In this document: in pieces, positions 1 through 57,162 of the stretch
How the letters are laid out: each line of letters begins with the position of its first letter
How positions within the stretch are numbered: position 1 is the first letter of the stretch
DNA from: Malacoraja senta
Taxonomy: Eukaryota
Direction: 5' to 3'
Assembly: GCA_038087875.1 (NCBI GenBank)
Contig: CM075989.1
Coordinates: 13,332,001-13,396,000, forward strand
Length of the DNA stretch: 64,000 bases
Program-made: the position numbers and the translations under genes
Notes under the pieces: generated by a model
What the model saw: only the letters and a program-made list of their open reading frames with translations
Told to the model about the DNA's origin: nothing
The model's database searches: none

Positions 1-2162
1 CCGACCCCTGACCTAAAGGATAATAAATTGGATAATAATGTGAAGATCTCTCTGCTGGTGTGCCGTGCATTTGGTCAAAATATTCAAATGCAATTGCTGC
101 AATTTTTATTTTACTTTAGACCCTTTTTTACTTCCCTGCAGCAAACTTGTTGGTCATTCTCTACTATCGTTTAAATGATCTCTTAAATGATCCAGCGAGA
201 CACTTTGTTGTGCCATTATTGGTGCATCCAAACAGAAAGATTAAATATTTACCCTTGTCGCTTCATATTCTGCTGCTATCAATTCTTGAAAACATGTTCG
301 GCTATTTTTCATTAAATACATGCACACCTCCAGGTTGTTCTCCTTTCTGCCCATCATTGAATCCCTCCAGTTATTTTTCACCACCACTGAGCCACAGTAC
401 ATTGTTGTCTCAGTGAAACACTCTGCCCCTTGTCGTTCTCTGCATTCTGTTAGATCGATCACAAGCTGCCTGTAACATGTCTTCACATTTTTCAAGCCAA
501 AGATGAAATTGAAGCTTGGTGATAAGACAGGGTATGAAGGTGGTGTGGGGGGGTTCAGAGAAATATTATATCTGTTGGATTAATTTCAGTTTATGATATT
601 TTACTCAAATCTCTTGTATATTTATGTCCTAGAGAGGTAATTCAGCACATGAATTGGGAGACTGGGATTAAAGGAATGATCACGACTCAAGGGATGAGTC
701 TTGATCATTCCTTTAATCCCATTCTCCCACTTAATTTCCTCAAATTTATCTGGTATATATATCCATTACCCCCCCTGATTCTATCATCATGTACTATTGG
801 GGCAATTAATAATGGCCAGTAAACCTGCCATCCAAAAAGTATTCAGGATATAGATCACCAAAAAAATGCAGTTACGGAGAACAAACAAACTCCACACAGC
901 ATTAGAGATCCCAATAAACCCATTTCACTGCAGCTATGTAACATCTGCTGCACACTAAGCATTTTGGAAAATCTGACCAGATTACACGAGCCAGTGTGGA
1001 TTTATTGTGGTAGATAAGTGTGTGTATGGATGGAAAATATTTTTTTGATCCAGAGGTCAAAGTTAGAGTCATAATTACACGGCCCTTTGATCCAATTCAT
1101 CCATATTACTCCCATTTGCTTGTGTTGGCCCATTTTTCTCTAAACCTTTGTTATCCATGTACCTTTTAAACATTGTAATTGTACCCGCTTCTATCAACTC
1201 TTAAGGCAGTTTGTTTCATAAACCAACCACCCTCTGTGTGGAAAATCCCTCCCCTCTCATTTGAAATCTCTGCCCCCTAGTTTTAGATTCCACTGATGTG
1301 GTTAAAGTCTGATCTGCCCCTCTTGGTTTTGTAAACCTCTACCCTCAGCCTCCTTTGCACCAGGGAAAACAGGCCCAACGTATTCAGTTTCTCCATATAA
1401 CTCATGCCCTCCAGTCTCAGTAATTTCCTTGTGAATCTTTTCTGTACCCTCTTTTAATCACATCCTCATAACATGGCAACCAGAACTACACGAAACACTC
1501 CACGTGTGGTCTCACCGACTTCTTGCGCAGTTGCAACATGACATCCCAACTCTTACAACTGTGAACAGATGTCGGATTTTCATAAATCAGTGAAACATAC
1601 TAAGGGGCTGTGCATAAAATGCTGCAAACACTTGGGTCAAGCTGTGAGGGGAAAGAGTTAATATTTCAGGTCCAAAACTTTTTGTCAAAGCTCTGAGATC
1701 TGAAATGTCAACGCTCTTTCCTTTCCCACGGTCTGTCCTGCTGACTCCTTCCAGCACTTTCCATTTTTATTTCAGATTTCCAGCAATGCAGTTTTTTCTC
1801 TCATGATTTTCATCTGATATAATACATTTGCTATCCTATCCTGTGAATGGATGCATCTCTAAAGGCCTCATTTATACTGGTGGCCCATATGTTCTGTGAC
1901 ATATTTGCCTCGGATGTTTCTGATCATTTGAATTTCCTTCCAAACCAATTGAGAAATACAGATGATTAAACATACTGCTGAAACAAATGATGAGTTTAAT
2001 CTGCCTTTTAGTAAATATTGCTGTCGGTGGCAAGATATAGCATGTTTATCTGCTGTTGAGTCATTCCTCCCTATTTCCCCAGACATGGAGCCAAGTTAAT
2101 CTTTTTTACTGTTTTTGATCCGTTGCTTAATCAATATGTCATATTTTATTTTCTGTACTTAG

Positions 2163-2284
2163 ATATCAAAAGGAATGATTATACGCCAGACAAAATGGTA
2201 CTAGCTCAAGATGATGTAGAAGTTGCAATCCAGTCTGGCAGTGGTACCAAAGATGTACGAAACTCAATACGCCTAATGATTTAG
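2163..2284 (+). CDS. TRPM7: TRPM7 channel-kinase, last coding exon (upstream exons lie outside the window)
   Basis: After the acceptor ttctgtacttag it reads (D)IKRNDYTPDKMVLAQDDVEVAIQSGSGTKDVRNSIRLMI*, matching the recalled TRPM7 C-terminus (DLKRNDYTPDK...NSVRLML*). TRPM7-USP50-USP8 is the known human gene order. Confidence 0.93.
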
Positions 2285-6200: not shown

Positions 6201-8179
6201 CCACAAAGATCCTGTCTGATTTCATCTTCTTAAACCTTACATTAACTTCATTTTGACCAAATTTACGATCTCTGGCCATCCATAGTCCCTTACCTTGCCA
6301 TTCTTTATCAGTAATTACTGGAACATGCTGGTCATGGATTTTGATCAACTGGCTTTTAAATGACTCCTACGTGTCAGGTGCTGACTTACCCAATAACAAC
6401 TGTATTTAATTCCTTCAACTAGCATCACAATCGCAACTTTTTAATCCTGTCTCACACCTTCTGTCTTTTTATTTCTGTCTTTGTCCAACCATCTGCTTAT
6501 CAAAACCCCCCCTCACCTGCATCCATCTATTACTTGCTAGGCTGTTCTCCCCGTAACCTTTGACATTCACCTTAAAAGCCTCTCTGCCTTTCCTCTGTTC
6601 CAGCTGTCATTCTTCCCCCCCCCCCCAACAAATCGTCTCCTATCCGTGTTCTCCAGAGATGCTGCCCGACCTGCTGAGTTACTCCAGAGCTTTGTCTTTT
6701 TTTGTAAACCAGCATCTGCAGTTCCTTGTTTCTACTTCTTTTATCTTCCTCTCTATCGCATCTGAAACATCGAAACTCCGAAACATGGTATCCAAAATGA
6801 TATATTTGTTACAGAGAGTAGTATTATTGTGTTCTGGTCACCCCCCCCCCCCCCCCCCTTTTGGAAGAATGAGGAAACTTTGGAAAGGGTGCAGAAGAGG
6901 TTTACCAGAATGTGCCTGGATTAGAGAATACTAGCTATAAGGAAAGGTTGAACAAACTTGGCTTATTTTTCTGGAGGGTGATAGGAGACCTGATAGAAGT
7001 ATATAAAATAATGAGAGGCAAAGGTAGGGTGGACAGTCAGAAACTTTTTTTTCCCCAGGGTGAAAATGTCAAGGGCATAGCTTTAAGGTGAAATGGGCAA
7101 ATTTTAAAGGAGATATGTGGGGTACGTTTTTGACACAGTGATGAGTGTCAGGAGCACGCCGCCAAGTGTGGTGGTTGGGGCAAATATGATAGTGGTGTTT
7201 AAGAGGCATTTGGATACACACAGGGATATGCAGAGAATTGAAGGAAATGGATCACTTATCCATATCTGAGGCGATTAACTTGTCATCACATTCAGTGCAG
7301 ACATTGTGGGCTAAAGAACTTGTACCTGTGCTATATTGTTCCATGTTCTGTGCCAGGATCAGCCACAGACAATCCTGCACTCCATACCTAGCACTCTGCC
7401 TTTCCTGGGAGTTACTCATCTACCTGGTGTGACAACCTCATTGAAATTCCTACCTATGACGCTCTCAGCATCACGGTCCAGGGTGCGTCCAACTGCATTT
7501 CCAGCCACTCAATTTCCATAGATGCTGCCGCACCCGCTGAGTTTCTCCAGCACTTTTGTCTACCTTCGATTTTCCAGCATCTGCAGTTCCTTCTTAAACA
7601 CTCAATGCCACTAGTTACGAGCTGTAGCTGGACACATTGCCCACAGGTGTAGTCCGCGGGAACACTGGAAGTTTCCCTGGTCTACCACTTTCAGCAGGAA
7701 GAGCACTGTCCTGACTACGTTAAAGCAAAAGAGGAAAGGTAGAAAGATTGTATCTTGCTTTTCCACTTCTCAGCACCTCCGCTGAAGCCTTTAGTGATAA
7801 AGCCTCAGAAGTTTCCATTCATCCGCATCTTATGTGCTCAGTGTGTGTTCCGCATGTGCGAAGTCTGTACAACTTGTTTCGCATCGGAGGTAGACACAAA
7901 ATTCTGCCGTAACTCAGCGGGACGGGCAGCATCTCTGGAGAGAAGGGTCTCGACCCGAAACGTCACCCATTCCTTCTCTCCAGAGATGCTGCCCGTCCCG
8001 CTGAGTTCGTTACTCCAGAATTTTGTTCGAATCTACCTTCGATTTAAACCAGCATCTGCAGTTATTTCCGACGCACATTGTTTGGCATCGGCATCGACCT
8101 CTGCTCACTGTGGACGCAGGCCATAGATGCTGGAATCTGAAGCAACAAACGAGCCAACCTTCACTTTGTTCTGTTGCCG

Positions 8180-8600
8180 ACCGCAGGTGGGTCAGCTGGC
8201 GAGCTCTTCCCAGCCTCCCTTCTCCTGCATTTTGTTTTATTTCGAATTCAAACTGCTGGCCTGGCTTCGATGTCCGGTGTGTTGCAAGCCACCCGCTGGG
8301 CCTGGGACGGTCTCGGGTGGGGCAACGTCAGTGGTGCCGGCCTGTGCGCGGCTCTGGGGGGCGAGTGGTCACAAGAGACCCCGGGACGTCAACGGGGCCC
8401 CGGGCTCAGGTGGCGGTCGTCGCCCGTAAGATGAGGCCTTGTGGATGTGGCTGCGGCGTCCAGCCTGAAGATATCCCCTCGGAAAGCCAACAAAGCCTGG
8501 CGGAAAGCAGCCTGGCTGGGGGCGTGTACGAAGGCGAACACAAAGTTGATGTCAAGGTGGAGTACTGGTGAGTGGGGCGTGTCTACCGTCCCGGGAATTG
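8180..8600 (+). promoter_or_regulatory. CpG-rich promoter/first-exon region of the selenoprotein gene
   Basis: Local GC and CpG enrichment against a CpG-poor background, overlapping coding exon 1. Confidence 0.55.
8431..8567 (+). CDS. selenow2: SELENOW2/MIEN1-like (Rdx family) selenoprotein, coding exon 1
   Basis: ATG at 8431 (A at -3) in a CpG-rich region; MRPCGCGCGVQPEDIPSESQQSLAESSLAGGVYEGEHKVDVKVEY plus a split Cys codon (tg|); donor gtgagt at 8568. VKVEYC is the Rdx-family first strand. The choice of start codon is inferred. Confidence 0.8.
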
Positions 8601-9086
8601 GTTTAGGTTTATTATTGTCACGTGCACCGAGGTACAATGAAAAGGTTTGTTGTGCCTTTTGTCCAATCCCATCAGATATTACTATACATAAATACAATCA
8701 AGCCAAACTCAATAGATAGAGCAAAGGATAGAATATATAGTGTAGTATAGTGCACCAGTTCCAGAGACAACGTCCATGTCAAGGGTGCAGGTGAATCTGA
8801 CATTATCCAAGCTTATGAAGGACAAGTTGGCGATATGCAGAGTACTGCGCTGCCGACTACAAATTCAGAAGATAACAGAGGCAAAGAAGCTGTTCCTAAG
8901 TTGCGGGGGCGTCCCCGGGTACTATGGGCTATTGGTTCTGGCTGCACTGTGACTACAAAATAGTGCAGATTAGTTCAACATCAATGCTGTTGAGATAATC
9001 TGGGGTAAGTACAGACACTCACTGGGACAGCGGGTTGTGGGGGGATGGCGCTGGTGCTGCTTGTCATTCTGACACTCTGTCCCCAG

Positions 9087-9184
9087 TGCCGGATGAGGCT
9101 TCCTGGCGCGTTTCCTGTTCCTTGCCACTGAGATTAAGGAGCAAATTCCAGAGGCGCACATCACCGGGTTCATAGGACAGAAAG
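9087..9184 (+). CDS. selenow2: SELENOW2/MIEN1-like selenoprotein, exon 2 with in-frame Sec UGA (9094-9096)
   Basis: Acceptor ctctgtccccag, phase matches exon 1; (C)AG-TGA-GFLARFLFLATEIKEQIPEAHITGFIGQK(G); donor gtgagt at 9185. Gives a C-x-x-U motif. Confidence 0.9.
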
Positions 9185-9949
9185 GTGAGTGGACCTATCA
9201 CATAATGCAGACTTTAATTTGCCCAACGTTCTGTAAGAATCGCTTCTCATTTAGTTTCTTTATTCGCCAACTCAGAGGCTCCCCTGACTTTTGAAACAGC
9301 TCTAATCACCTCCACTGGGACCACCTTGACATCCGACCCCCTTCTGGTTGCCAGGGAACAGCCTCTCCACCACCTCGGCCCCCTCCTCCCCTGTAATATC
9401 TTCATAGATCTTTTATGCACCCGTTTCCTGTTAAATGGCATAATTCCTCTAACAGGGTGACCAGAACTGTACACTGTACTCCAAATGTGGCCGTCCCAAT
9501 GTCTTGGGCAATTGTAGAAACAAGAAACCTGCTTATGCTGGTTTACATAAAAAGACACAAAGTGTTGGACTAACTCAACAGGTCAGGCAGCATCTCTGGA
9601 GAATGTGGATAGGTGACGTTTTGGGTCGGGCCCTTATTCAGACTGATTGTTGGGTCGAGAGAGAAGAGGAACAGAACAAAGCCTGGCAAGTAATAGGTGG
9701 ATACAGGTGAGGGTGTTTTTGACAGGTAGATGGTTGTTCAAAGGCCAGAGATGAAAAGACAGAAGGTGTGCAACAAGAAGATTGAAGAGTTGCGAATTGT
9801 GAAGATAGAGGGAGGAATGTAGGTGGAAGGGGAGGGTTGGAGGATAAATAGGGGAATGTCCAGATGGGGCACAGGGGAGATAGGGTGGGAGGAGAAGGGG
9901 GGGATTATCTAAAATTGGAGAATTCAATGTTCATACAAATTCAACCCGT

Positions 9950-11990
9950 CGACCAGGCACCAGCACTCGGACACCTCAGACTTATAACTTGACCATGACC
10001 GTACAGTCGAACACCAGGCCATCATCTCCCAGACTGTTTCTGATCTCATCAGCTCTGGTCATCTCCCTCCACAGCCCCCAAATGTAACACACCCCAACCC
10101 CACACTGCCTGCTTCTATCTCCTTCTCAAAATCCACTGTTAAGACAGCCCTGGCAGACCCATTCTTTCTGCTTGTTCCTGCCCCACAGAACTCACCTCCA
10201 AATACCTTGATTCCATCCTATCACCCCCCCCCCCCCCCCCCCACCTTGACCAGTCCTTTCTGACTTAAATCGGTCGTGACACCTCACATGCCTTTCAACT
10301 CTTCAACAACTTTCAGTTTCATGGTCCCTATCGCCTAATTTTTACCATGGACATCTAGTCCCTTTACACCTCCACCCCCAATCATGAAGGTCTAAAGGCT
10401 CCCCAGTTCTTCCTTGAACAGAGACCAATCAATTTCCTTTTATGAACACACTTCTCGGCCTACGGAACCTGTCCTCGCCCTCTACTGTTCTCCTTTGACT
10501 TACTTTCTCCAAGTTAAAGGTGTAGCCATGAACACTCGCATGAGACCCAGCTATGCCTACCTTTTTGTTGGTTACGTTGAACAGGCCTTATTCCAAATGT
10601 ACACTGGCACCATCCCCCAACTCCTTCACAGCTACATTGATGACTGCATTGGGGCTGCCTCCTTTATACTTGCAGAATTTGATAATTTTAATAACTTTAC
10701 CACTAACTTCCACCCTGCTCTCAAATTCATTTGGACTACCTTTGACACCTCCCTCCCCTTTCTTGATTTCTATGTCTCCTTCACAGGGGACAGACTATTG
10801 ACTGATATCTACTACAAACCTACCGACTCCCAGTTATCTGGACTACACTTTCTCCCACCTTGCCTCTTGCAAAGCCGCTATCCCCTACTCTCAATTTCTC
10901 TGCCTCAGCTGCATCTGCTCCCAAATTGAGGCATTCCATTCCAGAACATCCGAGATGTCCTTGTTCTTTAGTAAACGTGGTTTCTCTCCTGCTGTCAAAG
11001 ATGTATCCTTCACCCGCATCTCCTCTGTGTCCCGCTGTTCTGCTCTCGCTCCCCCTCCTCCGAGATGGAACAAGGAAAGAGCCTGGTCTTCAACTATCAT
11101 CCTACGAGCCACCGCATCCAACGCATCATCCTCTTACATTTTCAACACCTCCAGCGTGATCTCACCCCAGTCGCATATTCCCATCTCCACCCTTTTCCGC
11201 CTTCCGGAGAGATGACTCCCACCTCCGCAGATGTGTCACCTGTCCCTATACCTCCTCCCTCACCTACATCCACAGCAGTTCTTCCAGGTGAGACCGAGGA
11301 TCACGTGCACCTCATCTAACTGTACCTACTGCATCCAGTATTCAACGATGTGGGCTCCTGTACATCATCGAGACCAAGTATAGACTCGGCGAACATTTCG
11401 CCGAACACTTGCGCTCAGGCTGCCAAGGCCTGCTGAATCTCCTGGTTGCTACCCATTTTAACTCCTCTTCCCATTCCCATACTGCCCTTCCTGTTGAGGG
11501 CCTCCTCTATTGCCAGACTGAGGCCACATGCAAACTGGAAGGACAACATCTCGTATTCCGCTAGGGTCGCTTACAACCATTGAATTGTCCAATTTTAAGT
11601 AACAACAAAACCCTCCTCCCCATTCTTTGCCCCACCCCCTCGGTCCCTCACCACTGAGCCTCACCCAGACTCGCACCTATTTCTTCCCTGCCCCCCCCCT
11701 TCCACTACACTCCTTCCTCTTGCTTCGCAATTCTTCAATCTATATGTCTCACATCTTCAATCTTTTCATCTAATTTCTAACCGTTTGCCTAACAAAAAGC
11801 CCACTATTATCAACCTATTACCTACCAGGCTTTGTCCTGGCCCTCCTCTCTTCCAGCTTTCTCCCCCCTCCCCCGAAATTAGTCTGAAGAAGGGTTCCAA
11901 CCCAATACATCACCTATCCTTGGTCTCAAAGGATGCTGCCTGACCCTCTGAGTTACTCCAGCACCTTGTGACATTTTTTTTGTAGTTCCT
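9950..11990 (+). mobile_element. Penelope-like element (RT plus GIY-YIG), decayed, in intron 2 of the selenoprotein gene
   Basis: QVKGVAMNTRMRPSYAYLF, YIDD, LPFLD, DIYYKPTDS; Uri-domain remnant near 11290-11420; characteristic 3' repeat at 11880-11970. Confidence 0.8.
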
Positions 11991-12574: not shown

Positions 12575-12651
12575 GAAGTTTTGAAGTTACAATTAACAAT
12601 AAGTTGGTTTTCTCTAAACTGCAATCAAATACATTCCCTCATCATGGCGAC
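12575..12651 (+). CDS. selenow2: SELENOW2/MIEN1-like selenoprotein, exon 3
   Basis: Acceptor ctttgtctcctcag; (G)SFEVTINNKLVFSKLQSNTFPHHGD, the Rdx signature GxFEV...LVFSKL...FP; donor gtgagt at 12652; phases compatible on both sides. Confidence 0.92.
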
Positions 12652-14239: not shown

Positions 14240-15275
14240 TAACAAAGAACTGTAGATGCTGGTTTACCGAAGATTGACATAAAATGCTGAAGTAACAGGT
14301 CAGGCAGAATCCCTGGAGAATGTATAGGTGATGTTTTGGGTCGGAACCCTTCTTCAGACTGATTGTAGGGAGCAGGCAAGAAAGCTTGGATAGAGATGGG
14401 GCAGGACAGAGCATGACCGGTAATAAGTGAACGCAGGAGATGGAGTTATCTGAGAGGCGGATGACCAGGGATGAGACAATAGATGTGAGCGGATAAAGAG
14501 TTGCAAATTGTTAAGTTTGGAGATGGAAAAGTTGAGAATTGTATATCCTTTGTAAACGGTACAAGTGAAGGGGGAACGGCAGGTGCGAGATCAATCAGGT
14601 TTGGAGAGGAGGGAGAGACAGGAGGAAGGAAAGGAGAGGGAAGATGGCTGTTGTGGGTTAGTCACTTAAAATTGGAAAATTCAATGTTCATATCATTGGG
14701 TTGTAAGCTACCCAAGCAGAAAATAGAAGTGCTGTTCCTCCAGTTTGCGTGTGGTCTCACTCTGGCAATGGAGGAGGCCCAGGTTGGAAAGGTCAATGTG
14801 GGAAGAGGGGGGTTTAAATGGTTAATAACCAGTAGATCCGGTAGGCCTTGGCAGAATGAGCGCAAGTGCTCAGTAAAGTGGTCTCCGAGTCTACGCTTCC
14901 TCTTGCCGATGTACAGGAACCCATTGGGAACATTGGATGCAGTAGATGAAGTTAGAGGAGCTGCATGTGATCCTCTGTCATAGTCATAGAGTCTTACAGA
15001 GTGGAAACAGGCCCTTCAGCCCAAATTGCTCACACTGGCCAACATGTCCCATTTACACTAACCCCACTTGCCTGTGTTTGGCCCATATCCCTCAAACCTG
15101 TCCTATTCATATTCCTGTCTAAATGTTTCTGTCTCACTTGGAAGGACTGCTGGTGTCCCTGGATGGAGGCGAGAGAGGTGGTATAGGGACAGGTGGTTGT
15201 GGAAGAAACTACCTGGGAAGGGATGAGTGAACCGAGGAGTTGCGGAGGAAGCAGTCTCTGCGGAAGGTGGAACAA
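14240..15275 (-). mobile_element. Penelope-like 3' fragment interrupted by a short CR1 tail (about 14980-15130)
   Basis: IFCLGSLQPNDMNIEFSNFK and the same terminal repeat as the other copies. Confidence 0.7.
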
Positions 15276-16131: not shown

Positions 16132-17896
16132 CAGTGCATTCAGAAAGTATTCAAGATACATTTATTTGTCACATGTACCAATTGGTACAGTGAAATGTGT
16201 GGTCAGACCCCTTCACTTTTTCCACATTTTGTTACATTACAACCTTATTCTAGAATGGATTGAATTCATTTTTTTGATCATGAATCTATACATAATACCC
16301 CATAATAACAAAGTTAAAACGGGTGTTCAGAAATTTTTTCAAAATAATTAAAAATAAATAACTGAAATATCACATTTACATAAGTATTCAGATCCTTCAC
16401 GCAGTACTTTGTTGAGGCATCTTTGGCAGCGATTACAGCCTCAAGTTTTCTTGGGTATGATGCTACAAGCTTGGCACACCTGTATTTGGGTAATTTCTCC
16501 CATTCTTCTCTGCAGATCCTCTCAAGCTCTGTCAGGTTGGATGGGGAGCGTCAATGCACAGCTATTTTCAGGTCCCTCCAGAGATATTCGATCGGGTTCA
16601 AGTCCGGGCTCTGGCTGGGCCACTCAAGGACATTGAAAGGCAGTGAAGAAAGCGAATGACATGTTGGCCTTCATAACAAGAGGAGTTGAGTATAGGAGCA
16701 TAGAGGTCCTTCTGCAGTTGTATAGGGCCCTAGTGAGACCACATCTGGAGTATTGTGTGCAGTTTTGGTCCCCTAATTTCAGGAAGGACATTCTTGCTAT
16801 TGAGGGAGTACAGCATAGGTTTACAAGGTTAATTCCCGGGATGGCGGGACTGTCATATGCTAAGAGAATGGAGCAGCTGGGCTTGTACACTCTGGAGTTT
16901 AGAAGGATGAGAGGGGATCTTATTGAAACATGTAAGATTATTTGGATACGCTAGAGACAGGAAACATGTTGCCGACGTTGGGTGAGTCCAGAACCAGGGG
17001 CCACAGTTTAAGAATAAGGGGTGAGCCATTTAGAACGGAGACGAGGAAACACTTTTTCACACAGAGAGTTGTGAGTCTGTGGAATTCTCTGCCTCAGAGG
17101 GCGGTGGAGGCAGGTTCTCTGGATACTTTCAAGAGAGAGCAAGATAACAGAGTCAGGGGATATGGGGAGAAGGCAGGAACGGGGTACTGATTTGGGGATG
17201 ATCAGCCATGATCACATTGAATGGCGGTGCTGGCCACAAAGGAACTCTGGAGCTCTGTCAGAGTGACCATCAGGTGCTTGGTCACCTCCCTGACCAAGCC
17301 CTTCTCCCCCGATTGCTCAGTTTGGCCGGGCAGCCAGCTCTATGAAGAGTCCTGGTGGTTTCAAAGTTCTTCCATTTAAAAATGACAAGGCCACTGTGCT
17401 CTTTGGGAGCTGCAACGCTGCAGAAATTGTTTTATACCCTTCCCCAGATTTGTGTCTCGATACAATCCTGTCTCAGAGGTCTACGGACAATTCCTTTGTC
17501 TTCATGGCTTGGTTTTTGCTCATTGTCAACTGCGGGACCTTATATAGACAGGTGTGTGCCTTTCCAAATCATGTCCAATCAATTTAATTTACCACTTGTG
17601 GACTCCAATCAAGTTGTAGAAACATCTCAAGGATAATCAATGGAAAGAGGATGCACCGAAGCTCAATTTTGAGTGTCATAGCAAAGGGTCTGAATACTTA
17701 TGTCAATGTGATATTGCAGTTATTTATTTTTAATTATTTGCAAAAATTTCTAAACACCAGTTTTTGCTTTTATATTATGAGGTATTGTGTGTAGATTGAT
17801 GATTAAAAAAATGAATTTAATCCATTTTAGAATAAGGCTGTCTTGTACCAAAATGCGGGAAAGGTGAAGGGGTCTGAATACTTTCTGAATGCACTG
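16132..17896 (-). mobile_element. Tc1-like (IR/DR type) DNA transposon, internally deleted, with a nested CR1
   Basis: TA|cagtgcattcagaaagtattca ... tgaatactttctgaatgcactg|TA; long TIRs; minus-strand remnants MKTKELSVDL*DRIVSRHKSGEGYKTIS (from 17505) and [15 protein letters not shown] (near 16630). Confidence 0.88.
16632..17237 (+). mobile_element. CR1 LINE 3' fragment, low-divergence family
   Basis: LYRALVRPHLEYCVQFWSP...; very similar copies at about 28670-28975 and 30315-30835. Confidence 0.85.
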
Positions 17897-19039: not shown

Positions 19040-19138
19040 ATCGTTTCGGCAGTGAAGGCAGCGAGAGATGGATTGATGCAGAACATTATAAGTGGGGAGA
19101 ACATTATGATCAAGAAGAAAACCTGCACTGTATTGTAG
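19040..19138 (+). CDS. selenow2: SELENOW2/MIEN1-like selenoprotein, exon 4 ending in a CAAX box
   Basis: Acceptor ctccaattcag, phase 0; IVSAVKAARDGLMQNIISGENIMIKKKTCTVL*, paralleling the MIEN1 tail (LIEAIRRA...CVIL); SECIS follows directly. Confidence 0.87.
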   Translation: MVSAVKAARDGLMQNIISGENIMIKKKTCTVL

Positions 19139-19182
19139 CAGAGACTGAGGAACCTGACATTAGTTTATGGTTCAGATTGATG

Positions 19183-19258
19183 AAGCATCATTCTGTCAAT
19201 GATTGTTTTCCCCTAAAGCTGGTGGTGAAGACATGAACAGAAATCAGAAAAGGTGCTT
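19183..19258 (+). promoter_or_regulatory. SECIS element in the 3' UTR of the selenoprotein gene
   Basis: AUGA at 19199-19202, AAA at 19215-19217 (12 nt later), GA at 19235-19236. Helix II tgttttc/gaagaca; helix I ttctg/cagaa extended by aagcatc/ggtgctt. Confidence 0.88.
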
Positions 19259-22200
19259 CTCCTGTTTGGGATCTGCTGCAAACATTGTCATTGGCCAGTC
19301 TGTTGTACACAGATAACCTGCTGTCATATTGTCACATTAAACTGAATTTGTTAAACTTTCCAGTCTTGTTCTCTATGTCAAGAGTAAAGAGTATGTCATT
19401 GTCGTGTGTATCAAAATCGGAACTATTAAATTATTACTTGCAGCAACATATAAATGCAGCAGCATAAAGGCATGTAACCATGGTAACCGTGGTACTCTTA
19501 TATAACACAATAAAAAAATAAAAAATTACATTAAAAAATTGTTCAGGCAAAAATGTCCAAAGTCCCAAGTACAACTAAAACAGTTCATAGTTCAGTTGGT
19601 GTTTGTAGTGTTTAAGTGCCTGGTCGTTGGGAAGAAGGTGTACCTGAACCTGTCAGTCAGCTTTCAAACTCCTATATCTTCTTCCCGATGACAGGAGTAA
19701 AATGAGAACATGGCCAAGGGAACTTGATGATACCAGCTGTCTTTTTGAGGCAGCACTTCCTATAGATCCCTTCGATGGGGGGGGGGGGGGGGGGGGGGTC
19801 AGTATCCGTGATAGCCTGGGCAGTGTCGTCCACTTTTTTAAATCTCCTTTGTTACTGGGCATTCGGGTTGCCGAACAAGGATGTGATGCAACCAGTTAAT
19901 AGACTCTCTGCCATACATCTGTAGAAGTTCTTGTGAGTATTCCATGATCACAATGACTGGTGGTGCTGGCTCGAAGGTGGTGCTAGCTCCTCCTGCACCT
20001 ATTTTCTATGTTTCATCGACATATCAACTCTCCTCAATCTTCTAAAGAAGTAGAAGCATTGCTTTGTTTTCTTTATAATTGCATCAATGTGCTGGGCCCA
20101 ACACAGATCTTTAGAGATGTGCACACCCAGGAACATGAAGCTGTTGACTCCCTCCACCACCAAGTCAATTATGAAGACAGGTTCATGAATCCTTGGCCTA
20201 CCTCTTCTAAAGTCAACAATCAGCTCCTTGATCTTAATGGCATTGAGACCTGTTGGGTGTGTTGATATTCAATAGACCTATCAGCTGTGGAAATGGCTGT
20301 CTCCATCAGGCACAGTGGCTCAGATTTAACAGTAGTCGATCTTTCGTTCTCATGGCCAGTTCTTAGTGTTTCCTCCTCCTCTGTGACATATCCTGACACA
20401 TTCCAGGCAGGAGATACCAATAGAAATAAGAACAAAGGAAATAGAAATAGGAGCCAGCCCTTCATCTCGAGTCTGCTGTCAATCATCAGGACCATGGTTG
20501 ATCCCCCTGATCGTCACTATCCCCATCTCCCTCGATTCCCTTAATATCCAGAAATGTATCAATCTCAGTTTGAATGAACCCAGCCTCCTGGGTACAGAAT
20601 TCCAAAGATTCACCTCCGAGTGTGAAGAAATATCTCCATCTCTTCACCAAATTGTTTGCCCCTCTGCCAGGGATAACCTCCACCCTGCCACCAGCCTATC
20701 AAACCTGTAAGAATTTTGTGAGTTCCAGTGAGATCTCCAAAAAAGAATGGAGTCCAATTCTACACAATCTCTCCTTACATGGCTGGCCCGCCACCTAGGA
20801 ACCAGTCTGGTGAGTTATGAAAAGTATCTCCTTTTTTAGGTGGAGCCCAAAACTATCTACAGTACTCCAGGGTAAAGAATTCCAAAGGTTCACAATTCTG
20901 AGTGGTCGCTCTTTTGTTCTCATGGCCAGGAGGAGCCAGCACCACCTTCGAGCCAGCACCACCAGTCATTGTGATCATGGAATACTCACAAGAACTTCTG
21001 AGTGAATACATTTCTAATTGCAGTCCTATATGGCCTACTACTCATTGGACAGTGACTCCTAGCTATGTAAACATCCTACTCCATGCAACAGATCAGCTAT
21101 CCTAGGAACCAGCCTGATGAATCTCAGCAAGAATATTCTTATTCTTATTCTACCCAACACCATTTCGTGCCTAATGTGAATTTCCTTCAGTTCCTCTGTC
21201 ACCCTAGGTCCTCTGGCCACTAGTACATCTGGGAGATTGTTTGTGTCTTCCTTAGTGAAGTCTTCCAAAATACCTGTTCAACTCGTCTGCAACAGAGATT
21301 TACGAGGATATTGCCAGGACTCGAGTGTCTGAGCTATAGGGAGAGGTTGGGCAGGTTTGGACTTAATTTCTTCGAACACAGGAGGCCAAGGGGTGGTATT
21401 ATAGAGTATAATATCATGTGGGGAATAGATGCACTGCATGCACAGAGTTTTTCCCACGATAAGGAAATCAAGAACTAGAGGGAAAAGGATTAAGGCAAGA
21501 GGGGAAAGATTTAATAGGAATCCAAGGGCAACTTCTTCACACAGAGAGTGGTGGGTATGGAACAAGCTGCCAGAGGAAGTAGTTGAGGTTGGTACAATTG
21601 CGGCATTTTGGTTGGCATGGACGGGTTTGGCTGAAGGACCTGTTTCCCTGCTGTATGACTCCAAGACAATTATTTTCTTTCACAGCAAATTCTCACTAAA
21701 GAATGTCGCTGAGCCATAGATACACACTACACACATATATGTATATTATAATAATATGAAGCTGAAAAGAGTGCAGACATATATAATGTGTGTGTGTGTG
21801 TATGAATGCTTCAGTGACATGCTTTAATTGCTTCCCCTGGTACATCACTCAACTGCACTTTGACTAGCCCCAGGCACATCCTGCAATCAACTATTCTCTG
21901 ATCACCCACAGGTTATATCACCGGCTTCGTTTCGGTGTAGTCAACCACCAGACACACCACTTTTATTGCACATACACAACAGTGACACCAGTGGGTTGGA
22001 TGGTGTTGTATTCTTCATGTATGACCATTTTGTGTCACAAATGTCTTGCGTTGATGGATGCCTACGCACACAGCTGTATCGTTAATTCATGCGAAAGTGT
22101 CCAACAGGAGCCTCACTGATCTCAAACCTGCTCTCATTCTCACTAGACATCAGTTAGTGCTTGGTGTGTGCATCAGTTGCACCACTGACCTGATATGGAC

Positions 22201-27446: not shown

Positions 27447-27646
27447 NNNNNNNNNNNNNNNNNNNNNNNNNNNNNNNNNNNNNNNNNNNNNNNNNNNNNN
27501 NNNNNNNNNNNNNNNNNNNNNNNNNNNNNNNNNNNNNNNNNNNNNNNNNNNNNNNNNNNNNNNNNNNNNNNNNNNNNNNNNNNNNNNNNNNNNNNNNNNN
27601 NNNNNNNNNNNNNNNNNNNNNNNNNNNNNNNNNNNNNNNNNNNNNN
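27447..27646. other. Assembly gap (200 N)
   Basis: Run of N characters. Confidence 1.
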
Positions 27647-31624: not shown

Positions 31625-32144
31625 GTGGGCACCAGCTCAGCGCCCGACCCTCGCCCCCAGCAGTCGGCTGAAGGGGTGAGGTTAAGGGGAGAAGTGGGTG
31701 GAATGAGGTGACTGGGAGGGGTTAGTTGAGTGGGTCAGGGGAAGGCTGGATGGGGCAAGCTGAGAGTAGGAGTGAGGGGTGAGTGAAAGGGGAGGTGAGT
31801 GGGAAGGGGTGAGTAAGGTGAAGGAGTGAAAGGAGAGGGAGGGGTGAGTGGGTGTGTGTGGGTCGTGGTGAAAGTGAAGGGATTGGTGGAGGAGGGTTAG
31901 CTGGGTAATCCAGGAGTGGGTAGGTGAGGTAAGCGGAGAGGTGGGCTTGGTGAGTGGGGTTGAGGGGTTGGGGTTGGCTGAGGTGAGAGGGTGAGGGGAG
32001 GATTGGAATGGGTGGGGTGGGTATGGTGAGGGTTGGTAGGGTGAGAGGAGGAGGTTGTGGCATGAAAGGTGGGCTGTGTGAAATCTGGCGCCATCTAATG
32101 GATCTGTATCATCTGCACTCGGATGTTTTTTCCTCTTCTGACAG

Positions 32145-32355
32145 ATTTTCCTTCTGCAGAGGCCGTGGGGAGCTATCTAATGCCTTCTCGGCTTTAGTGA
32201 TGGACATGTGGTTGGGGGATTGTGTGTACGTCTTTCCGGATGAAGTGAAGAGAGTTCTTGGAAAGATGCACGCTTCCTTCTCCGATGGGACCCAGCAAGA
32301 TGCCCAGGAGTTGCTTCTCTTCTTTCTCAACATTCTCCAAAATGATCTGAAGAGG
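32145..32355 (+). CDS. USP50: USP50-like exon (QQDAQE box)
   Basis: FSFCRGRGELSNAFSALVMDMWLGDCVYVFPDEVKRVLGKMHASFSDGTQQDAQELLLFFLNILQNDLKR; donor gtgagt. An alternative in-frame acceptor would start the exon at 32160. Confidence 0.88.
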
Positions 32356-33630
32356 GTGAGTGCTCAGGGAATGCATGCAGTGGACAGCACTGAAAGGGCA
32401 AGGACGTTTACCCTGAAGAGCAGTCAGCAGCCCATTCCACTGACCTTCCCTGACAACCTGACTGCTTAAACCAGTGGCCAGCTCTTGCCCTTCTGGCCCT
32501 TCTTCTTTCAAAAGATTACTTTACTCATAAAATGTACAAATAGACAACTCACTTGCCAATAGTGACATGAGATTGCAGATGCTGAATTCTTAAACAAAAC
32601 AAAAACTGCTGGAGAACGTAGTTGGGTCAGGCAGCATCTGTAAAAGGAATCGGCAGACAATGTTTTGGGTCAGGACTCTTCACTCTGAAGAAGGGTCCCA
32701 ACCTGAAACGGGACTCGTCCAATCCTTCCACAGTTGCTGTCTGAATCGCTGAGTTCCTCCAACATAGTTGCCATTATTCCATTGCTGTTGCCTTAGGGAA
32801 GTCAAAAACTAGAGGGAAAAGTTTTAATAGGAACCCGAGTGACAACCTTTTCAAACATTGGGTGGTGGGTATATGAAACAAGCTGCCATAGGTACTGGTA
32901 AAGTAGTGACATTTCAATAATATTTGGACAGGTACATGGATAGGAACGGTTTAGAGGAATATGGGCCAAATGTGTGTAAATGGACTAGCTGAGATGGGGG
33001 CTTCTTGGTCAGCATGGATGAGTCAGGCCAAAGGCCCTGTCTACATGCTGTATGACACTATGACTTTATTATTCGTTGTACCAGCCCATCATTGCATTTG
33101 TTTGCGATGTTGCGATTAATAATACCATCATGTATTGATTGATATTTGACAACAATTCCAACCCTCAGTGCTGGGCAGGACCTTTGCCACTCAGCCTTTC
33201 TCCATGGGGCAGCCCCATGTCTTGACATGTCCCTCACAGCTATTTCATTGCCCCACTTATATCCCTGGAACCTCATTTCTCTGACAAACCCGTTAACTCC
33301 GTCATGCTTCTCCTACCACCCACAAACACCAGGGACAATTTGTAGCCGCCAGTTAACCTATCAGTCGCACGTCTTTGGGATGAGGGAGGAAACCAATGCA
33401 GCTGGAAAACCTGTGTGGTCGCAGGGAGAACGAGCAGACTCCACATCAACAGCATCCAAAGTTGGGATTGGACACAAGTCACTGGAGCTGCAAGGCAGCA
33501 GCACGACTTGCTGCACTGCAATGCTGCCCTATAATCACCCTTGTTGGCGAGGTGCCATGTGCCAAGTACCTATTAAGATACACCAGACCTTTTGAGATGG
33601 ACAGTGAACTGAAGAATATTCTCTTCTCAG

Positions 33631-33795
33631 TCTTCAGGTGTGAGAAACATAGAAACATCAATCGTTACAAAGTTGTTCCAAGGGCAACTGAGCTACATAA
33701 AACTCTGCCTGAATTGTTACCACAAGTCCAACCAAACCGAGAACTTCCTGAGCCTCTCACTCCCCATGCCAACAGACAGCAGATGTTCCATTCAG
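33631..33795 (+). CDS. USP50: USP50-like exon
   Basis: SSGVRNIETSIVTKLFQGQLSYIKLCLNCYHKSNQTENFLSLSLPMPTDSRCSIQ; phase-0 acceptor ctcttctcag; donor gtaaag. The 5' boundary is less certain. Confidence 0.82.
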
Positions 33796-34691
33796 GTAAA
33801 GACTCACCATTATGTTAATGCCAAGAAAAAGGATTTCAAACTTTCGGTGCACTAACCTGATACCACATTTAGCACTAACACTTGATTGCGTAGTTGGCCA
33901 GAAACCTGCTAATATGTGACCTTCGGTTTCCAAAGACATTTCAAAAGGCTGCGAGGTGGAGGGAGGAAAGAGACACAGGGATCAAACAAAAAGTGAGATA
34001 TGTCAGGAGGGGAGCTAGAAGGTTGGGCAATTTCTCATTCATCATGCAGATTAGTTGTGCTCCCAGGTGAAACTTGTTGAGATTGAGATGCATTGTTGTG
34101 GTGAGAGGTAGGATATCAATCTGCACGGACTTCATTAGAATCATCGTTTGCCTGTCATCAAGTACGTAGAACAGTACAGTACAAGACAGGCCCTGCGGCC
34201 CACATTATCTTTGTTGAACACAATGCCAAATTAATCTTTTCTTCTTCCTCCATGTGATCCAGATCCCTTCATTAGCAGGGTATTCATAAGCCTCTCCAAA
34301 AACCTGTAAAATGCCACGATCGTATCGGCTTCCACCATCACCCCTGGCAGCAAATTCCAGGCACCTGTGTAAAAAAAAAACTTGCCCTGTACATCTCCTT
34401 TAAACATTCCCCTTTTCACACTTCACTGGTAGATGTTTCTGGACTATTGCAATTGCACCTCTGGTGTGTAGGCTGTCTCCTGGTTGCCGGCTGCATCAGC
34501 CTGGGCCGGCCAGCGCTGCAGGGATAGCAATGTGCTCAGTGAAACCTCTGCAGTAGAGGCTGGTCAAAGTGGATCTCCTGACCTCAGGCTACAATAGCCC
34601 ACTGGGAGGGGAATCTGTGTCAGAGTGACAGTGTTGTGTTGGGGTGTGTGGCGTCTGCTGCAGCTTTGCTAATGATGGCTGCTGGTTGCAG

Positions 34692-34834
34692 GACTGTCTC
34701 AGGCTGTTCTTTAAAGAAGAGGTTCTGAGCTCGAGGGACCAGCCTTTCTGCTCCTTCTGCGGCCAGAAGCAGGACCTGGCGGAGAGTATCCAGCTGCTGA
34801 AGGCTCCTGACATCATCATCATCCACCTGAAGCG
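34692..34834 (+). CDS. USP50: USP50-like exon
   Basis: DCLRLFFKEEVLSSRDQPFCSFCGQKQDLAESIQLLKAPDIIIIHLK(R); ag/gtgagt boundaries; 143 nt. Confidence 0.9.
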
Positions 34835-35175
34835 GTGAGTTCTCGAGCTTTGGTTTCCTTCCGTCAGGGGAGGTGGGGGCAGGAGATGGTCCCAAGTCCC
34901 ACTAGAAAGCGCCAGCTTCGGTGACCATGCTTGACTCTCTGTGAGCTAGAATTTCCATTAATTATTAATCAGTGCCAGTCTTTGATACCAATCTTTGAAT
35001 AATTTGAATGATGGCGATTTTCTCTGTGCAGGAGCCATCAAACACCTTCCACTGGAATATTCAAGGGCATTGACTGCCCCTCTCCCCCTGTTGTTCTCCC
35101 TTTCGGTGTCAATGTCTTGCCTCACAATTGTTCAATAGTTCTGTCTGCGATTTAATCATTCCCTTTCCCCACCAG

Positions 35176-51310: not shown

Positions 51311-51590
51311 GTGCAGTCCCACTCCCATTGATTCAATGGAACGTTTGACAAAATGTCTCGCCTTTATCTATATCCAAAAAAAAGAGTAATGGCAGACAAC
51401 TCAGTTGGAGGAGGCACCACCAATGAACCTACTCATGGCTGCTTTTCATCAGAGATCCCCAAACAGCAAACCAGGAGCAGAAATTTGTACTCATTGCTCT
51501 CTTGCTCCACCAATCATGAGCCCCATCCTGAATAAAACAAGTTTACAAACCACAAATAACCGTTACCTACAAAACTTAGGTAAGTTTTAC

Positions 51591-51824
51591 CTGCAGAGAA
51601 CACTTGCTGGAAGAAGGAAGTGGCAGAGATAGATACATGAAGGCCTCAAATGTTCGTGACCTCTTATGACAAGTCAGACACTGTACTGTTGATTTAAACT
51701 GGCCTTGGAACAAGGTAACTATTATGGATTTGTTGAGACATTTGTGCTTTGTCCAGGCCAGATCAGCTGCTCTTGTATCATCCAAGCTGTCATTATTCTC
51801 CTCTTTGTACCGTTTCTTTTCAGC
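51591..51824 (-). CDS. USP8: USP8 exon
   Basis: AEKKRYKEENNDSLDDTRAADLAWTKHKCLNKSIIVTLFQGQFKSTVQCLTCHKRSRTFEAFMYLSLPLPSSSKCSLQ. Confidence 0.93.
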
Positions 51825-52018
51825 CTTAAGGAAGATTAAAAGAGAGGAAAGTTAGCTGCCATACATACTATGGTTTATGATACCTGTGAAAAGAACAGTG
51901 GGCTGCCAGTACAATGGGACTTTCCCCAATTACATAGAACAGCACAAAAACAGGCGTTAGGGCGCACAAATTCTATGCCGAACATAATGCAATAATAAAT
52001 CAATCTCATCTGCCTGTA

Positions 52019-53662
52019 CAGTGCCCTCCATAATGTTTGGGACAAAGACCCATCATTTATTTATTTGCCTCTGTATGCCACAATTTGAGATTTGTAATAG
52101 AAAAAAAAATCACATGTGGTTAAAGTGCACATTGTCAGATTTTATTAAAGGGTATTTTTATACATTTTGGTTTCACCATGTAGACATTACAGCTATGTTT
52201 ATACATAGTCCCCCCATTTCAGGACACCATAATGTTCGGTACACATGGCTTCACAGGTGTTTGTAATTGCTCAGGTGCCTCCTCAATGCAGGTATAAGAG
52301 AGCTCTCAGCACCTTGTCTTTCCTCCAGTCTTTCCATCACCTTTGGAAACTTTTATTGCTGTTTATCAACATGAGGACATACAAAGTTGTGCCAATGAAA
52401 GTCAAAGAAGCCATTATGAGACTGAGAAACAAGAATAAAACTGTTAGAGACATCGGCCAAACCGTAGGCTTACCAAAATCAACTGTTTGGAACATCATTA
52501 AGAAGAAAGAGAGCACTGGTGAGCTTACTAATCGCAAAGGGACTGGCACAGGACAAGGAAGACCTCCACAGCTGATGACTGAAGAATCCTCTCTATAATA
52601 AAGAAAAATCCCCAAACACCTGTCCGACAGATCAGAAACGCTCTTCAGGTGTGGCTTTGTCAATGACCACTGTCTGCGGAGGACTTCATGAACAGAAATA
52701 CAGAGGCTACAGTGCAAGATGCAAACCACTGGTTAGCTGCAAAAATAGGATGGCCAGGTTACAGTTTGCCAAGAAGTACTTAAAAGAGCAACCACAGTTC
52801 TGGAAAAAGGTCTTATGGACAGATGAGACGAAGATTAACTTATATCAGAGTGATGGCAAGAGCAAAGTATGGAGGAGAGAAGGAACTGCCCAAGATCCAA
52901 AGCATACCACCTCATCTGTGAAACACGGCGGTGGGGGTGTTATGGCCTGGGCATGTATGGTTGCTGAAGATATTGGCTCACTTATCTTCATTGATGATAT
53001 AACTGCTGATGGTAGTAGCATAATGAATTCGGAAGTGTATAGACACATCCTATCTGCTCAAGTTCAAACAAATGCCTCAAAACTCATTGGCCAGCGGTTC
53101 ATTCTACAGCAAGACAATGATCCCAAACATACTGCTAAAGCATCAAAGGAGTTTTTCAAAGCTAAAAAATAGTAAATTCTTGAGTGGCCAAGTCAATCGC
53201 CCAATCTGAACCCAATTGAGCACGCCTTTTATATGCTGAAGAGAAAACTGAAGGGGACTAGCCCCCAAAACAAGCATAAGCTAAAGATGGCTGCAATACA
53301 TGCCTGGCAGAGCATCACCAGAGAAGACACCCAGCAACTGGTGATGTCCATGAATTGCAGACTTCAAGCAGTCATTGCATGCAAAAGATATGCAACAAAA
53401 TACTAAACATGACTACTTTAATATACATGACATTGCTGTGTTCCAAACATTAAGGTGCCCTGAATTGGGGGGACTATGTGTAAACACTACTGTAATTTCT
53501 TCATGGTGAAACGAAAATGTATAAAAATGGCCTTTATTAAAATCTGACAATGTGCACTTTAACCACTTGTGATTTTTTTTCTATTACAAATCTCAAATTG
53601 TGGAGTACAGAAGCAAATAAATAAATGATGGGTCTTTGTCCCAAACATTATGAAGGGCACTG
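52019..53662 (+). mobile_element. Full-length Tc1 (DD34E) transposon with inactivated transposase, in a USP8 intron
   Basis: TA|cagtgccctccataatgtttgggacaaagaccc ... gggtctttgtcccaaacattatgaagggcactg|TA; about 220-bp TIRs; WTDETK, QQDND and SPNLNPIE with 34 residues between D and E; frameshift near 52550 and stops at 53170-53175. Confidence 0.93.
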
Positions 53663-53772
53663 TACCTACATATTCTCCAGACTGTTTCACAGATATCTCT
53701 TCATTCCCTGAAACAGATCTCTACAAATAATTTGTCTTCGCCCTGCACAAACAGCATGCAATCACTTCTTAC

Positions 53773-53983
53773 TTCATTTAGATCTTCGTGAAGCCCATCC
53801 ATGAGAAAAAGGAGCAGTTCCTGGGAATCCTGCTGCACATACTCTCCAAACGTTTCATTTATTTTTCCAATGCGCCCCCGGAAGTCTCTTGGACTGATGC
53901 ATTTGTATTGTCCTGACCACAAAGTCTTCATTATTATGCCAAACTCTTCAGCAACCTCACCTTTATGACCAAGAATGTTTGAC
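53773..53983 (-). CDS. USP8: USP8 exon (QQDSQE box)
   Basis: SNILGHKGEVAEEFGIIMKTLWSGQYKCISPRDF...QQDSQELLLFLMDGLHEDLNE; 211 nt. Confidence 0.94.
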
Positions 53984-54339
53984 CTACAAGAAAAGTATAT
54001 TATTAACAATACATATTGAACTATCAATTGTTGGCATTTCTTCACTTGCTGCGAGGGCAAGTTGCCTTCAAAATTTGGCCTAGTTATAATGAGCAGGCAG
54101 AGATTTCCACTTCAAATATGTGTTGTGTTCTTAGTGAAACTCAGCTTCAAGTTCAGGAACTCAAAAGATACCCTGTTTTTGTGAAGCGATGGTGCCTTTA
54201 GTACTGCAAGCGGATAGTATATTTCGGTGTTCTTGACCATGTTGCACAAATAGATTTTTGGGGGAACGTCCAGTGAGGTATCACTTGAAACAAAAAGGGG
54301 GATCATCGCTTTGATGGGACTGTATTGTAGCTGCCACTC

Positions 54340-56270
54340 CCAATCATTTGTGGGAATTAATGGAGCAGATGTAAGGAGATCACAGATAGTTGTATGAACC
54401 TCCAGTTTAAATTCCATTTGGAATATTTTGGAGAACCAGGAAAACAAAACCAAAATACAAACAATAAGATATCAGTGGGAGATTGTAAATTTCCTAATAT
54501 TGACTGGGTTACCCACTTGCAAAGAACAAGGTGGAACTTGTTAAATGTCTCTAAGCAAGCTTCCTTAATCAATACCGAGGACTCTACTGCACTGGACCTT
54601 TTGCAAAGGAGGTAGGTCAAGTGATTACAATGTCAATTTGGGGGTAATTTGGGACCAGTGACCATAACTATTAGTTTTTAAATAGTTATGGAGAAAGATA
54701 GAACCAGTCTACAAATTTACAAGTTCAGATTCTAAACCTAAAGAGCAATTTTGGAGGCAATAGGCAGGAACTTGCAAAGGTTGATCAGGCAAGTAAAGGG
54801 ACGACTGGCAAGTGGGTACTTAAAAAAAAAGAGATAGCAAGAGTTCAGGGACAGCGTGTTCCTGTTGGGGTGATGGGGCAAGGTTGGCAAGTTTAAGGAA
54901 CCCTAGATGACAAGAGATATTGCGGCTCCGGTCAGGAATAAGGCACGCATCAGGATCAAGCGAACCTCTAGATGCTTGATCCTGGAGTACAGCAAGAGGG
55001 ATATCAAGAAGGCAAAAAGAGGGCATGAGATGAATCTGGCAGGCAAGGTAAAGGAAAATCCCAAGAGATTCTGCAGGTATATTAAAAATAAAAGGGAGCC
55101 TTGGGAGAGCAGTTTTCAACACCTTGGCCAACAAGCAACATTTCTTACTATCCACCCTATTCATGCTGCTCATTTTACACACCTCATTAGTTTTTACTAT
55201 GTAGAAGATCCATGGATGCTGAGAAATTGAATGGAATTACCAAAGAGGTGATATTGGCTGTCTAAAAGCACGATAAGGTTGATAAAACACTAGGGCCTGA
55301 CCAAATGCATTCTCAGACTTTGTGGGAAGCTGGTAAAGGAATTATGGAGCATCTTGCAGAGATATTTACATCAACTTCAGCCAAATGTGAAGTTCCAGAA
55401 GACTGGAAGGGGGATAATTGTACAGTTATTTATGGGCAGCGAGGACAATCCAGGGAATTACAGACTGGTGACCATGACATCAGCGCTGGGTAAGTTATTG
55501 GAGGGGATTATGAGGGACAGGATCTACCAGGATTTGAAATCACATAAACTGATTGGGGATAGTTAGTGGGATATTGTTCATGGGAAGTCATACCTCACAA
55601 ATCTGAGTCTTGTTTTAAGAGGTAACCAAGGAAATTGATTAAGGTCAAACTTGGGGAATGGACAAGTCCATTTGGATTTCAACAAGGCCTTTGACAAGTT
55701 CCTGCAGAGTAGGCTAGTCTGGAAGGTTAGATTGTACGGGACTCGGGAAAGTTAGCTAATTGGATACGTAATTGGTGGGTGACGACGGAAGGCTGTTGTA
55801 CGGACTGCAGGCCTATGACTCATGATGTGCCGCAGGGGTCGTGCTGAGCCCATTACTGTTTGTCATCTGTGTTGATGACTTGGATGAAAATATACACGGC
55901 ATAGTTAGTAAGTTTGTAGATGATACTGAAATAAGTGGTATCGTAGACAGAGAGGGAGGTTATCAAGAATGAGTGGGATCTTGATCAGCTGGGTAAGTGG
56001 GCTGAGAAATGGTAAAGGGAATGTAATTCAGATAAGTGGGAGGTGTTGCATTTTGGAAAGTCAAACTAGGGTAGTGTAGGGTATGTGGAACAAGTTGCCA
56101 GAAGAAGTGGTTGAGGCAGGTACAATAACAATTAAAAGACATTTGGACAGGGACATGGATATGAAAGGTTTAGAAGGATAAACACGGGCAAATGGGACTA
56201 GCTTAGCTGGGCAGCTTGGTTGACTGAGACAACATGGACAAGTTGAGCCAAAGGACCTGTCTCCTGAGCT
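54340..56270 (+). mobile_element. CR1 LINE ORF2 remnants
   Basis: KENPKRFCRYIKNKR, PGNYRLVTMTS, DFNKAFDK and SKFVDDT motifs. Confidence 0.8.
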
Positions 56271-56504
56271 GTTGGCTCCATGAAAAGTAGTCATTTAACA
56301 GCTTTTAATTCTTAATGAGGCCTATTCTCTCCTTTGTTAGCCTTTGTTCTCAATATACCCTTTCTCTTATCTGCCAGACCAATCTCTTGCCTCATTTTGC
56401 TCTCCTGATTTTCCTCCTAACTGCACCCCACGTTTCTTATGTTCCTTGCTTGATCTAGGTTCTAGACTGTTGCACTTAAACTTGTTTATAAGTGAAAACT
56501 TTTA

Positions 56505-56741
<237 letters not shown>

Positions 56742-57162
56742 TTATTTCGAACTCAGAATAATGGAACACTTCTTACTGTCTAAAACACAAACACCATGAA
56801 GCTTTTATAATTGGTTACTGAAGAGAATGTTCATGGTTTAGCTGATTATGACACTACAACACTGCAATTAAGACTAAATAACAGACACAGCATTATCAAG
56901 CACACCATAATCTCATGGCTGTTAAGTCCAGAGCTATGCCAGATGATTTGCAGTGGGACAGGGAGGGGGGGGGGGGTACAAGATTCAAAATGGGAATAGG
57001 GAAATGATTATATTGGCCGAGTATGGATTCACTAGTTAAGTCCAGTGTGTCCATGACAAAGGAGTAGGAACAAATCCAAAGGAGGTTACAAAGTATAATA
57101 TAAAAAGCAATGTCAATACATAAACACATACAAAGCAGCTTGAAGATTTAAAAAAAACCTAC

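Follow-up and report, generated by a model that had tools for sequence, protein, structure and literature searches.

A type I SECIS hairpin behind an in-frame UGA in a SELENOW2-like gene of the skate Malacoraja senta

A hairpin at 19182–19259 (+) on contig CM075989.1 of the skate Malacoraja senta was read in a first-pass annotation, which placed it at 19183–19258, as a canonical SECIS element that supports the recoding of UGA as selenocysteine (Sec). The surrounding stretch of 64,000 nt (positions 13,332,001 to 13,396,000 of the forward strand), referred to here as the window, raises three connected questions, i.e. whether this hairpin is a genuine SECIS, which UGA it would serve, and to which member of its protein family the host gene belongs.

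The consensus of the SECIS core is given as UGAN/KGAW (PMC3753652). In the skate hairpin, this core consists of a 5′ half UGAU (19200–19203) and a 3′ half UGAA (19234–19237) that place GA opposite GA. The 5′ half is preceded by an A (together 19199–19203), with AUGA at 19199–19202, while the GA of the 3′ half occupies 19235–19236 and would form tandem G·A pairs with 19201–19202. Helix II and the apical loop fill the interval between both halves (19204–19233): 19204–19210 pairs with 19227–19233, followed by CC:GG with the GG at 19224–19225. This results in a register of ten pairs (19204–19213 with 19224–19233) with a single C·U mismatch and an apical loop of 10 nt, in which AAA (19215–19217) is located 12 nt past AUGA. 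Below the core, the 5′ arm of helix I (19191–19195) pairs with 19245–19249, and a lower stem of eight pairs (19182–19189 with 19252–19259) follows. The minimum free energy fold has 11–12 helix II pairs with two bulged U and closes the loop to 4–6 nt. Checked by hand against the limits of the SECISearch3 filter (apical loop 8–30 nt, helix II 7–15 pairs, bending at most 2; supplement of PMC3753652), the ten-pair register with its 10-nt loop complies, whereas the loop of the minimum free energy register is shorter than the 8-nt minimum. All SECIS features named in the first-pass annotation were recovered at their positions in the sequence and in the folds.

The predicted fold is stable. Pair probabilities amount to 0.93–1.0 for helix II, both for the hairpin alone and within the whole 3′ UTR, and to 0.73–1.0 for helix I with its lower extension. 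As the partner of the 5′ arm of helix I, 19245–19249 (0.73–0.9) is clearly favored over 19238–19242 (0.04–0.06). The + strand folds better than its shuffled counterparts (z −3.33; 1 of 200 shuffles as good), and no such advantage is seen for the − strand (z −0.44; 59 of 200).

For a comparison with published descriptors, the strict and default SECISearch1 patterns were re-implemented from the supplement of PMC3753652. The strict version calls for a helix II arm of 11–13 nt followed by unpaired AA, and for helix I within the allowed spacing. The hairpin complies with this pattern and has type I geometry, which bears out its description as canonical. Across both strands of the window (128 kb), the strict pattern is matched five times and the default pattern 13 times. 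The energy cut-offs of SECISearch are −7.4 and −12.6 kcal/mol. When these are added to the strict pattern, two matches survive, at 19199 (+) and 63797 (−). The second one, a SECIS-like pattern spanning 63750–63810 (−), was dismissed as background, since it falls within an open frame on the USP8 side, upstream of which no UGA gene is known. The 392-nt UTR was also dinucleotide-shuffled 1500 times: 29 of these sequences match the strict pattern, and three match it when the energy cut-offs are added. An initial descriptor gave one match in 128 kb and none in 2000 shuffles with thresholds that had been set post hoc, and the strict pattern was therefore preferred. Since the strict pattern also arises by chance, in the window as well as in shuffles, shape by itself is no proof of a SECIS; the call becomes convincing through the position of the hairpin behind a UGA gene. 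This background speaks for a very unlikely reading in which the TGA is a true stop, in a gene that decays or skips an exon, and the hairpin arose by chance or was left over: four further strict matches are present in the window, one of which also passes the energy cut-offs.

The scores obtained with covariance models count against the assignment. The Rfam model SECIS_1 (RF00031) matches 19191–19249 with 21.6 bits, below its cut-off of 35, corresponding to an E-value of 0.092 on 401 nt and 1.2 on 5 kb; at the gathering score, Rfam gave no match in the whole window. The first-pass annotation had named the lack of a covariance-model hit as grounds for giving up the SECIS. Such a hit exists, but it stays under the cut-off, and Rfam was judged invalid as a refuting test. 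The gathering score of 35 is a curation threshold and not a defining biological feature. Moreover, the model was applied to the hairpins of L001 and L002, mRNA-like contigs of two fish homologues (MIEN1-type) that carry TGA at the redox position. These stem from a metagenome scan with at least 592 pattern matches and are the two confirmed loci among the matches listed, neither of them from the shark/skate clade. Each contig has exactly one strict SECIS match, located in the 3′ UTR (584–624 in L001, 576–615 in L002), and zero on the opposite strand. Both hairpins show the geometry of the skate element, with a ten-position helix II, at most one mismatch and a loop of 10–12 nt with AA. SECIS_1 yielded nothing for either of them at E-values up to 10, also when 401-nt stretches were searched. 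As SECIS_1 misses these two hairpins, the low score of the skate hairpin does not refute its assignment. A de novo MAFFT alignment placed all three hairpins in register; of the 30 helix II cells, 28 are paired, compared to 33–48% paired cells in slid controls, and five of the ten pairs are changed on both sides. As all three hairpins come from paralogues and had been selected with one and the same pattern, the alignment documents a shared geometry and not independent covariation. With a model trained solely on L001 and L002, the skate hairpin ranked second among 14 window matches (13.0 bits, E 0.37), which is not significant.

The gene in front of the hairpin is encoded on the same strand by four exons with GT–AG ends that together provide 411 nt in frame, i.e. 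136 codons with a final TAG. The coding part of exon 1 (8431–8567, +) begins with ATG and ends at a GT donor that splits the Cys codon in a CxxU motif after its second base. It is located in a CpG-rich stretch (7800–8600) with a CpG observed/expected ratio of 0.75–0.88 versus 0.36 window-wide, and its DNA is common to the gene model of Leucoraja, there in another frame, and in part to that of the whale shark. Exon 2 (9087–9184, +), which harbors the putative Sec codon, has AG/GT ends and was found by tblastn with the orthologue model P0001. The Rdx-family core is encoded by exon 3 (12575–12651, +), which matches Pfam Rdx (PF10262) with 23.7 bits (cut-off 22.6) and TIGR02174 with an E-value of 2.2e-06, under the whole-protein cut-off of the latter model; its sole PDB match is human C17orf37/MIEN1. 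No Pfam or NCBIfam model was matched when exons 1, 2 and 4 were searched singly. The coding part of exon 4 (19040–19138, +) specifies the end KKK-T-CTVL, a lysine run followed by a CaaX-like box, as well as the TAG, and matches the ends of the orthologue models P0001 and P0002. Membership in the Rdx family follows from the Pfam match of exon 3 and the C46-x-x-U49 motif. Similarity to MIEN1-family clusters in the ESM Atlas (0.77 and 0.75) can serve as leads only. At its start (8431–8460, +), the protein is rich in Cys and Gly, with three Cys among the first eight residues. This stretch is absent from the whale-shark model, though both proteins begin with MR; it is possible that it acts as a second lipid anchor.

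In the spliced model, the A of AUGA lies 61 nt past the stop codon and 325 nt past the UGA. For the UGA-to-SECIS distance, a range of 207–5207 nt and a minimum of 51–111 nt have been published (PMC3316567), and the spacing in the predicted skate mRNA falls in this range and exceeds this minimum. Two AATAAA polyadenylation signals (19509 and 19517; together 19509–19522, +) are located downstream of the hairpin. ATTAAA occurs at 19336, the first such signal after the hairpin, and again at 19425 and 19530. None of 13 poly(A) signal variants, including AATAAA and ATTAAA, was found between stop codon and hairpin, and one weak AAGAAA is present at 19115 in the coding region. The first-pass annotation had placed the hairpin on the correct strand and 3′ of the stop, which agrees with its position behind a gene that has a single in-frame TGA at the CxxU position.

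This TGA (9094–9096, +) forms codon 49 in a C-A-G-U context and is the only in-frame TGA of the four-exon frame. The contigs of two DNA sequencing runs, X1 and X2, which come from one study that is possibly the source of the assembly, cross exon–intron borders and show not a single differing letter over 8834–9564. The hairpin region is carried by the contig of one run, likewise with no differences. Further evidence comes from the homologue alignment: among the 107 homologues that share the first Cys and extend over position 49, out of 276 proteins matched by blastp, position 49 is C in 55, W in 47 and another residue in five. The W is likely a TGA read as Trp, and TGA is found at the redox position in L001 and L002. 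The frequent Cys, which also occurs here in amniote MIEN1 according to Tico et al. 2026 (PMC13134290), could suggest that an error in the assembly turned a Cys codon into TGA, in which case the gene would encode a CxxC protein and the hairpin would be unused. This is scarcely credible in view of the contigs of X1 and X2 and of the behavior of the orthologue models, all five of which avoid the codon, as a Cys codon would not cause such avoidance.

The five models (P0001, P0002, P0007, P0155 and P0156), which are named MIEN1-like and represent the closest relatives of the skate protein, stem from Rhinoraja, Leucoraja, Chiloscyllium, Hemiscyllium and Rhincodon, with 93% identity to the Leucoraja protein over 58 residues. 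Three of them join unrelated sequence ahead of the residues that follow the UGA, one starts directly after the UGA, and that of Leucoraja leaves out exon 2 and takes exon 1 in a different frame. The first exon of the Rhinoraja model is a fragment of a LINE reverse transcriptase. That all five avoid the codon is indirect evidence that the UGA may be conserved. The residues after the UGA are conserved in the orthologues from skates to the whale shark. For the reading as a true stop, the skipped exon in Leucoraja and the long branch of the shark/skate clade (see below) can be brought forward. Yet, the frame is intact and its single TGA is located exactly at the redox position, exon 1 is CpG-rich, and conservation continues beyond the UGA over the whole distance from skates to the whale shark. 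Furthermore, skipping of exon 2 would delete the redox motif and put exon 1 out of frame. A stem resembling a Sec redefinition element (SRE) behind the UGA was also considered and rejected, as 113 of 500 shuffles folded equally well.

Taken together, the hairpin is a genuine type I SECIS of the ordinary sort, and both such elements and its selenoprotein family have long been known. It shares with eukaryotic type I elements the AUGAN/KGAW core, a helix II arm of 10–11 nt, the unpaired apical AA, helix I, and the location downstream of a UGA gene, in what is here the predicted 3′ UTR. Nothing about it is different in kind; it deviates in its score under the Rfam cut-off, the C·U mismatch in helix II, and the extra eight-pair stem below helix I. 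From the sequence, this SECIS very probably recodes the UGA at 9094–9096 as selenocysteine. By analogy with established selenoprotein biology, the four-exon gene would be transcribed and spliced, and the tandem G·A core would form a kink-turn that is bound by SBP2 as in eukaryotic Sec insertion. SBP2 would then bring eEFSec with Sec-tRNA to the UGA, which would be read as selenocysteine to afford a predicted CxxU redox protein of 136 residues. Its CTVL box may be prenylated, in analogy to human MIEN1, which is geranylgeranylated at CVIL (PMC6738349). The SECIS supports the Sec reading and thereby offers a correction for the gene models of five shark and skate species, in which the active site is truncated or circumvented.

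Which paralogue this gene represents is suggested by its neighbors. Upstream, the C-terminal translation of an exon at 2162–2284 (+) identifies the last coding exon of TRPM7; the call is based on this one short exon, of which 10 of 11 residues equal the C-terminal peptide printed in PMC6055029, and the tail gave no match in the PDB. Downstream, after an assembly gap of 200 N (27447–27646) between the SELENOW2-like gene and the next one, follows a USP8-like deubiquitinase (31987–34945, +) with a Pfam UCH domain and USP8 as best PDB match, which is likely USP50, a name given for its position. USP8 exons (51579–57425, −) were recognized by Pfam UCH and WW_USP8. TRPM7, USP50 and USP8 also occur within one window of the cattle genome (PMC4928802). 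According to the text of Tico et al. 2026, TRPM7 is close to SELENOW2 in every ray-finned fish and amphibian that was tested there, and SELENOW2 and MIEN1 have no common neighbors (PMC13134290). MIEN1 is flanked by GRB7/ERBB2/PGAP3/IKZF3 in amniotes or by SLC4A1A/UBTF/ATXN7L3 in ray-finned fishes. The skate gene lies beside TRPM7, and the neighbors identified are TRPM7, the USP8-like gene and USP8, none of which belongs to the MIEN1 sets. The host gene is therefore probably SELENOW2.

An improbable alternative accepts the SECIS and regards the gene as a relocated or duplicated copy of MIEN1. The databases indeed name the orthologues MIEN1-like, and the best PDB match is human MIEN1 (also C17orf37 or Rdx12; PDB 2ljk), which belongs to the same family with an E-value of 1.4e-13 through P0001. 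In addition, the survey text lists invertebrates, cyclostomes, amphibians and ray-finned fishes in the SELENOW2 branch without naming Chondrichthyes, and mentions a chondrichthyan MIEN1; in this text, no loss of SELENOW2 in cartilaginous fishes is stated (PMC13134290). Phylogenetic trees were calculated over 86–87 columns from 50 and 23 hand-picked rows, none of which carries a verified SELENOW2 label; P0002, which lacks exon 2, and P0155, a near copy of P0007, were left out. In both trees, the deep forks that would separate SELENOW2 from MIEN1 groups lack resolution, and the name SELENOW2 consequently rests on synteny. The shallower branching is informative: the skate protein from the window forms one clade with those of Rhinoraja, Chiloscyllium and Rhincodon (support 99/100 and 97/96), which sits on a long branch. 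The proteins of Mobula and Hypanus, which have MIEN1-like ends, fall outside of this clade, and a single clade of all four batoid rows, a group named after the first tree, was rejected (p-AU 0.0043). This points to two paralogues that are older than the split of sharks and rays. Rays (Mobula and Hypanus) have a separate MIEN1-type gene apart from the skate gene, which, along with TRPM7 as the marker of SELENOW2 upstream and the lack of neighbors common to MIEN1 reported by Tico et al., argues against a MIEN1 copy.

The assignment as SELENOW2 agrees with the described features of this protein, as the CxxU motif, the Rdx fold family, the TRPM7 neighbor and the SECIS are the same (PMC13134290, PMC3316567). 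Compared to the 95-residue forms of fishes, the skate protein has about 35 more N-terminal residues and an insertion of five to six residues before the CaaX box. MIEN1 shares the family, and its Sec forms in fishes have a SECIS of the same build, as exemplified by L001 and L002. In contrast, MIEN1 has other neighbors and Cys in amniotes (PMC13134290), and its CaaX box is CVIL in human instead of the CTVL of the skate gene. In the portion of the literature on skate and shark SELENOW2 that was covered, only two surveys are relevant. One of them, Mariotti et al. 2012, records SelW2 as a selenoprotein in the elephant shark under a naming that may include the present MIEN1. The other is Tico et al. 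2026, with cartilaginous fishes unnamed in the SELENOW2 branch of its text (PMC13134290). SELENOW2 has also been reported from the tuatara (10.1101/867069).

It is conceivable, albeit tentative, that sharks and skates have retained both a MIEN1 and, at the TRPM7–USP50 locus, a Sec-containing SELENOW2. The latter would form a fast-evolving clade that is mis-built in five of five models and that the survey text does not assign to its SELENOW2 branch. If true, this would supply the cartilaginous fishes that are missing from the duplication of SELENOW2 and MIEN1 at the base of the jawed vertebrates. The sole fresh point of the present locus is SELENOW2 in cartilaginous fishes, which the 2026 survey does not list in its text and may show in its figures (PMC13134290). 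If the name holds and the figures lack them, one branch would be added to the history of an often-lost redox gene; MIEN1, the paralogue of this gene, is a subject of cancer research.

The window also contains several repeats. Pieces of a Tc1/mariner-type transposase are found in a USP8 intron (52233–53403, +), with a match to the Pfam model HTH_Tnp_Tc3_2 and one to DDE_3 below its cut-off. A microsatellite of CA, TA and TG repeats behind the SELENOW2-like gene (21700–21820) folds into a hairpin and gives weak matches to miRNA families far below their cut-offs. Exon 3 of the gene is flanked by inverted repeat fragments (11237–11917 and 14324–15195) that are 77–89% complementary, have no Pfam match and resemble a retroelement. 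In intron 3, a high-copy repeat is enclosed by arms in inverted orientation (151 and 66 nt; 16203–16397 and 17684–17877), which together with it may possibly represent a transposon that was interrupted by a LINE fragment.
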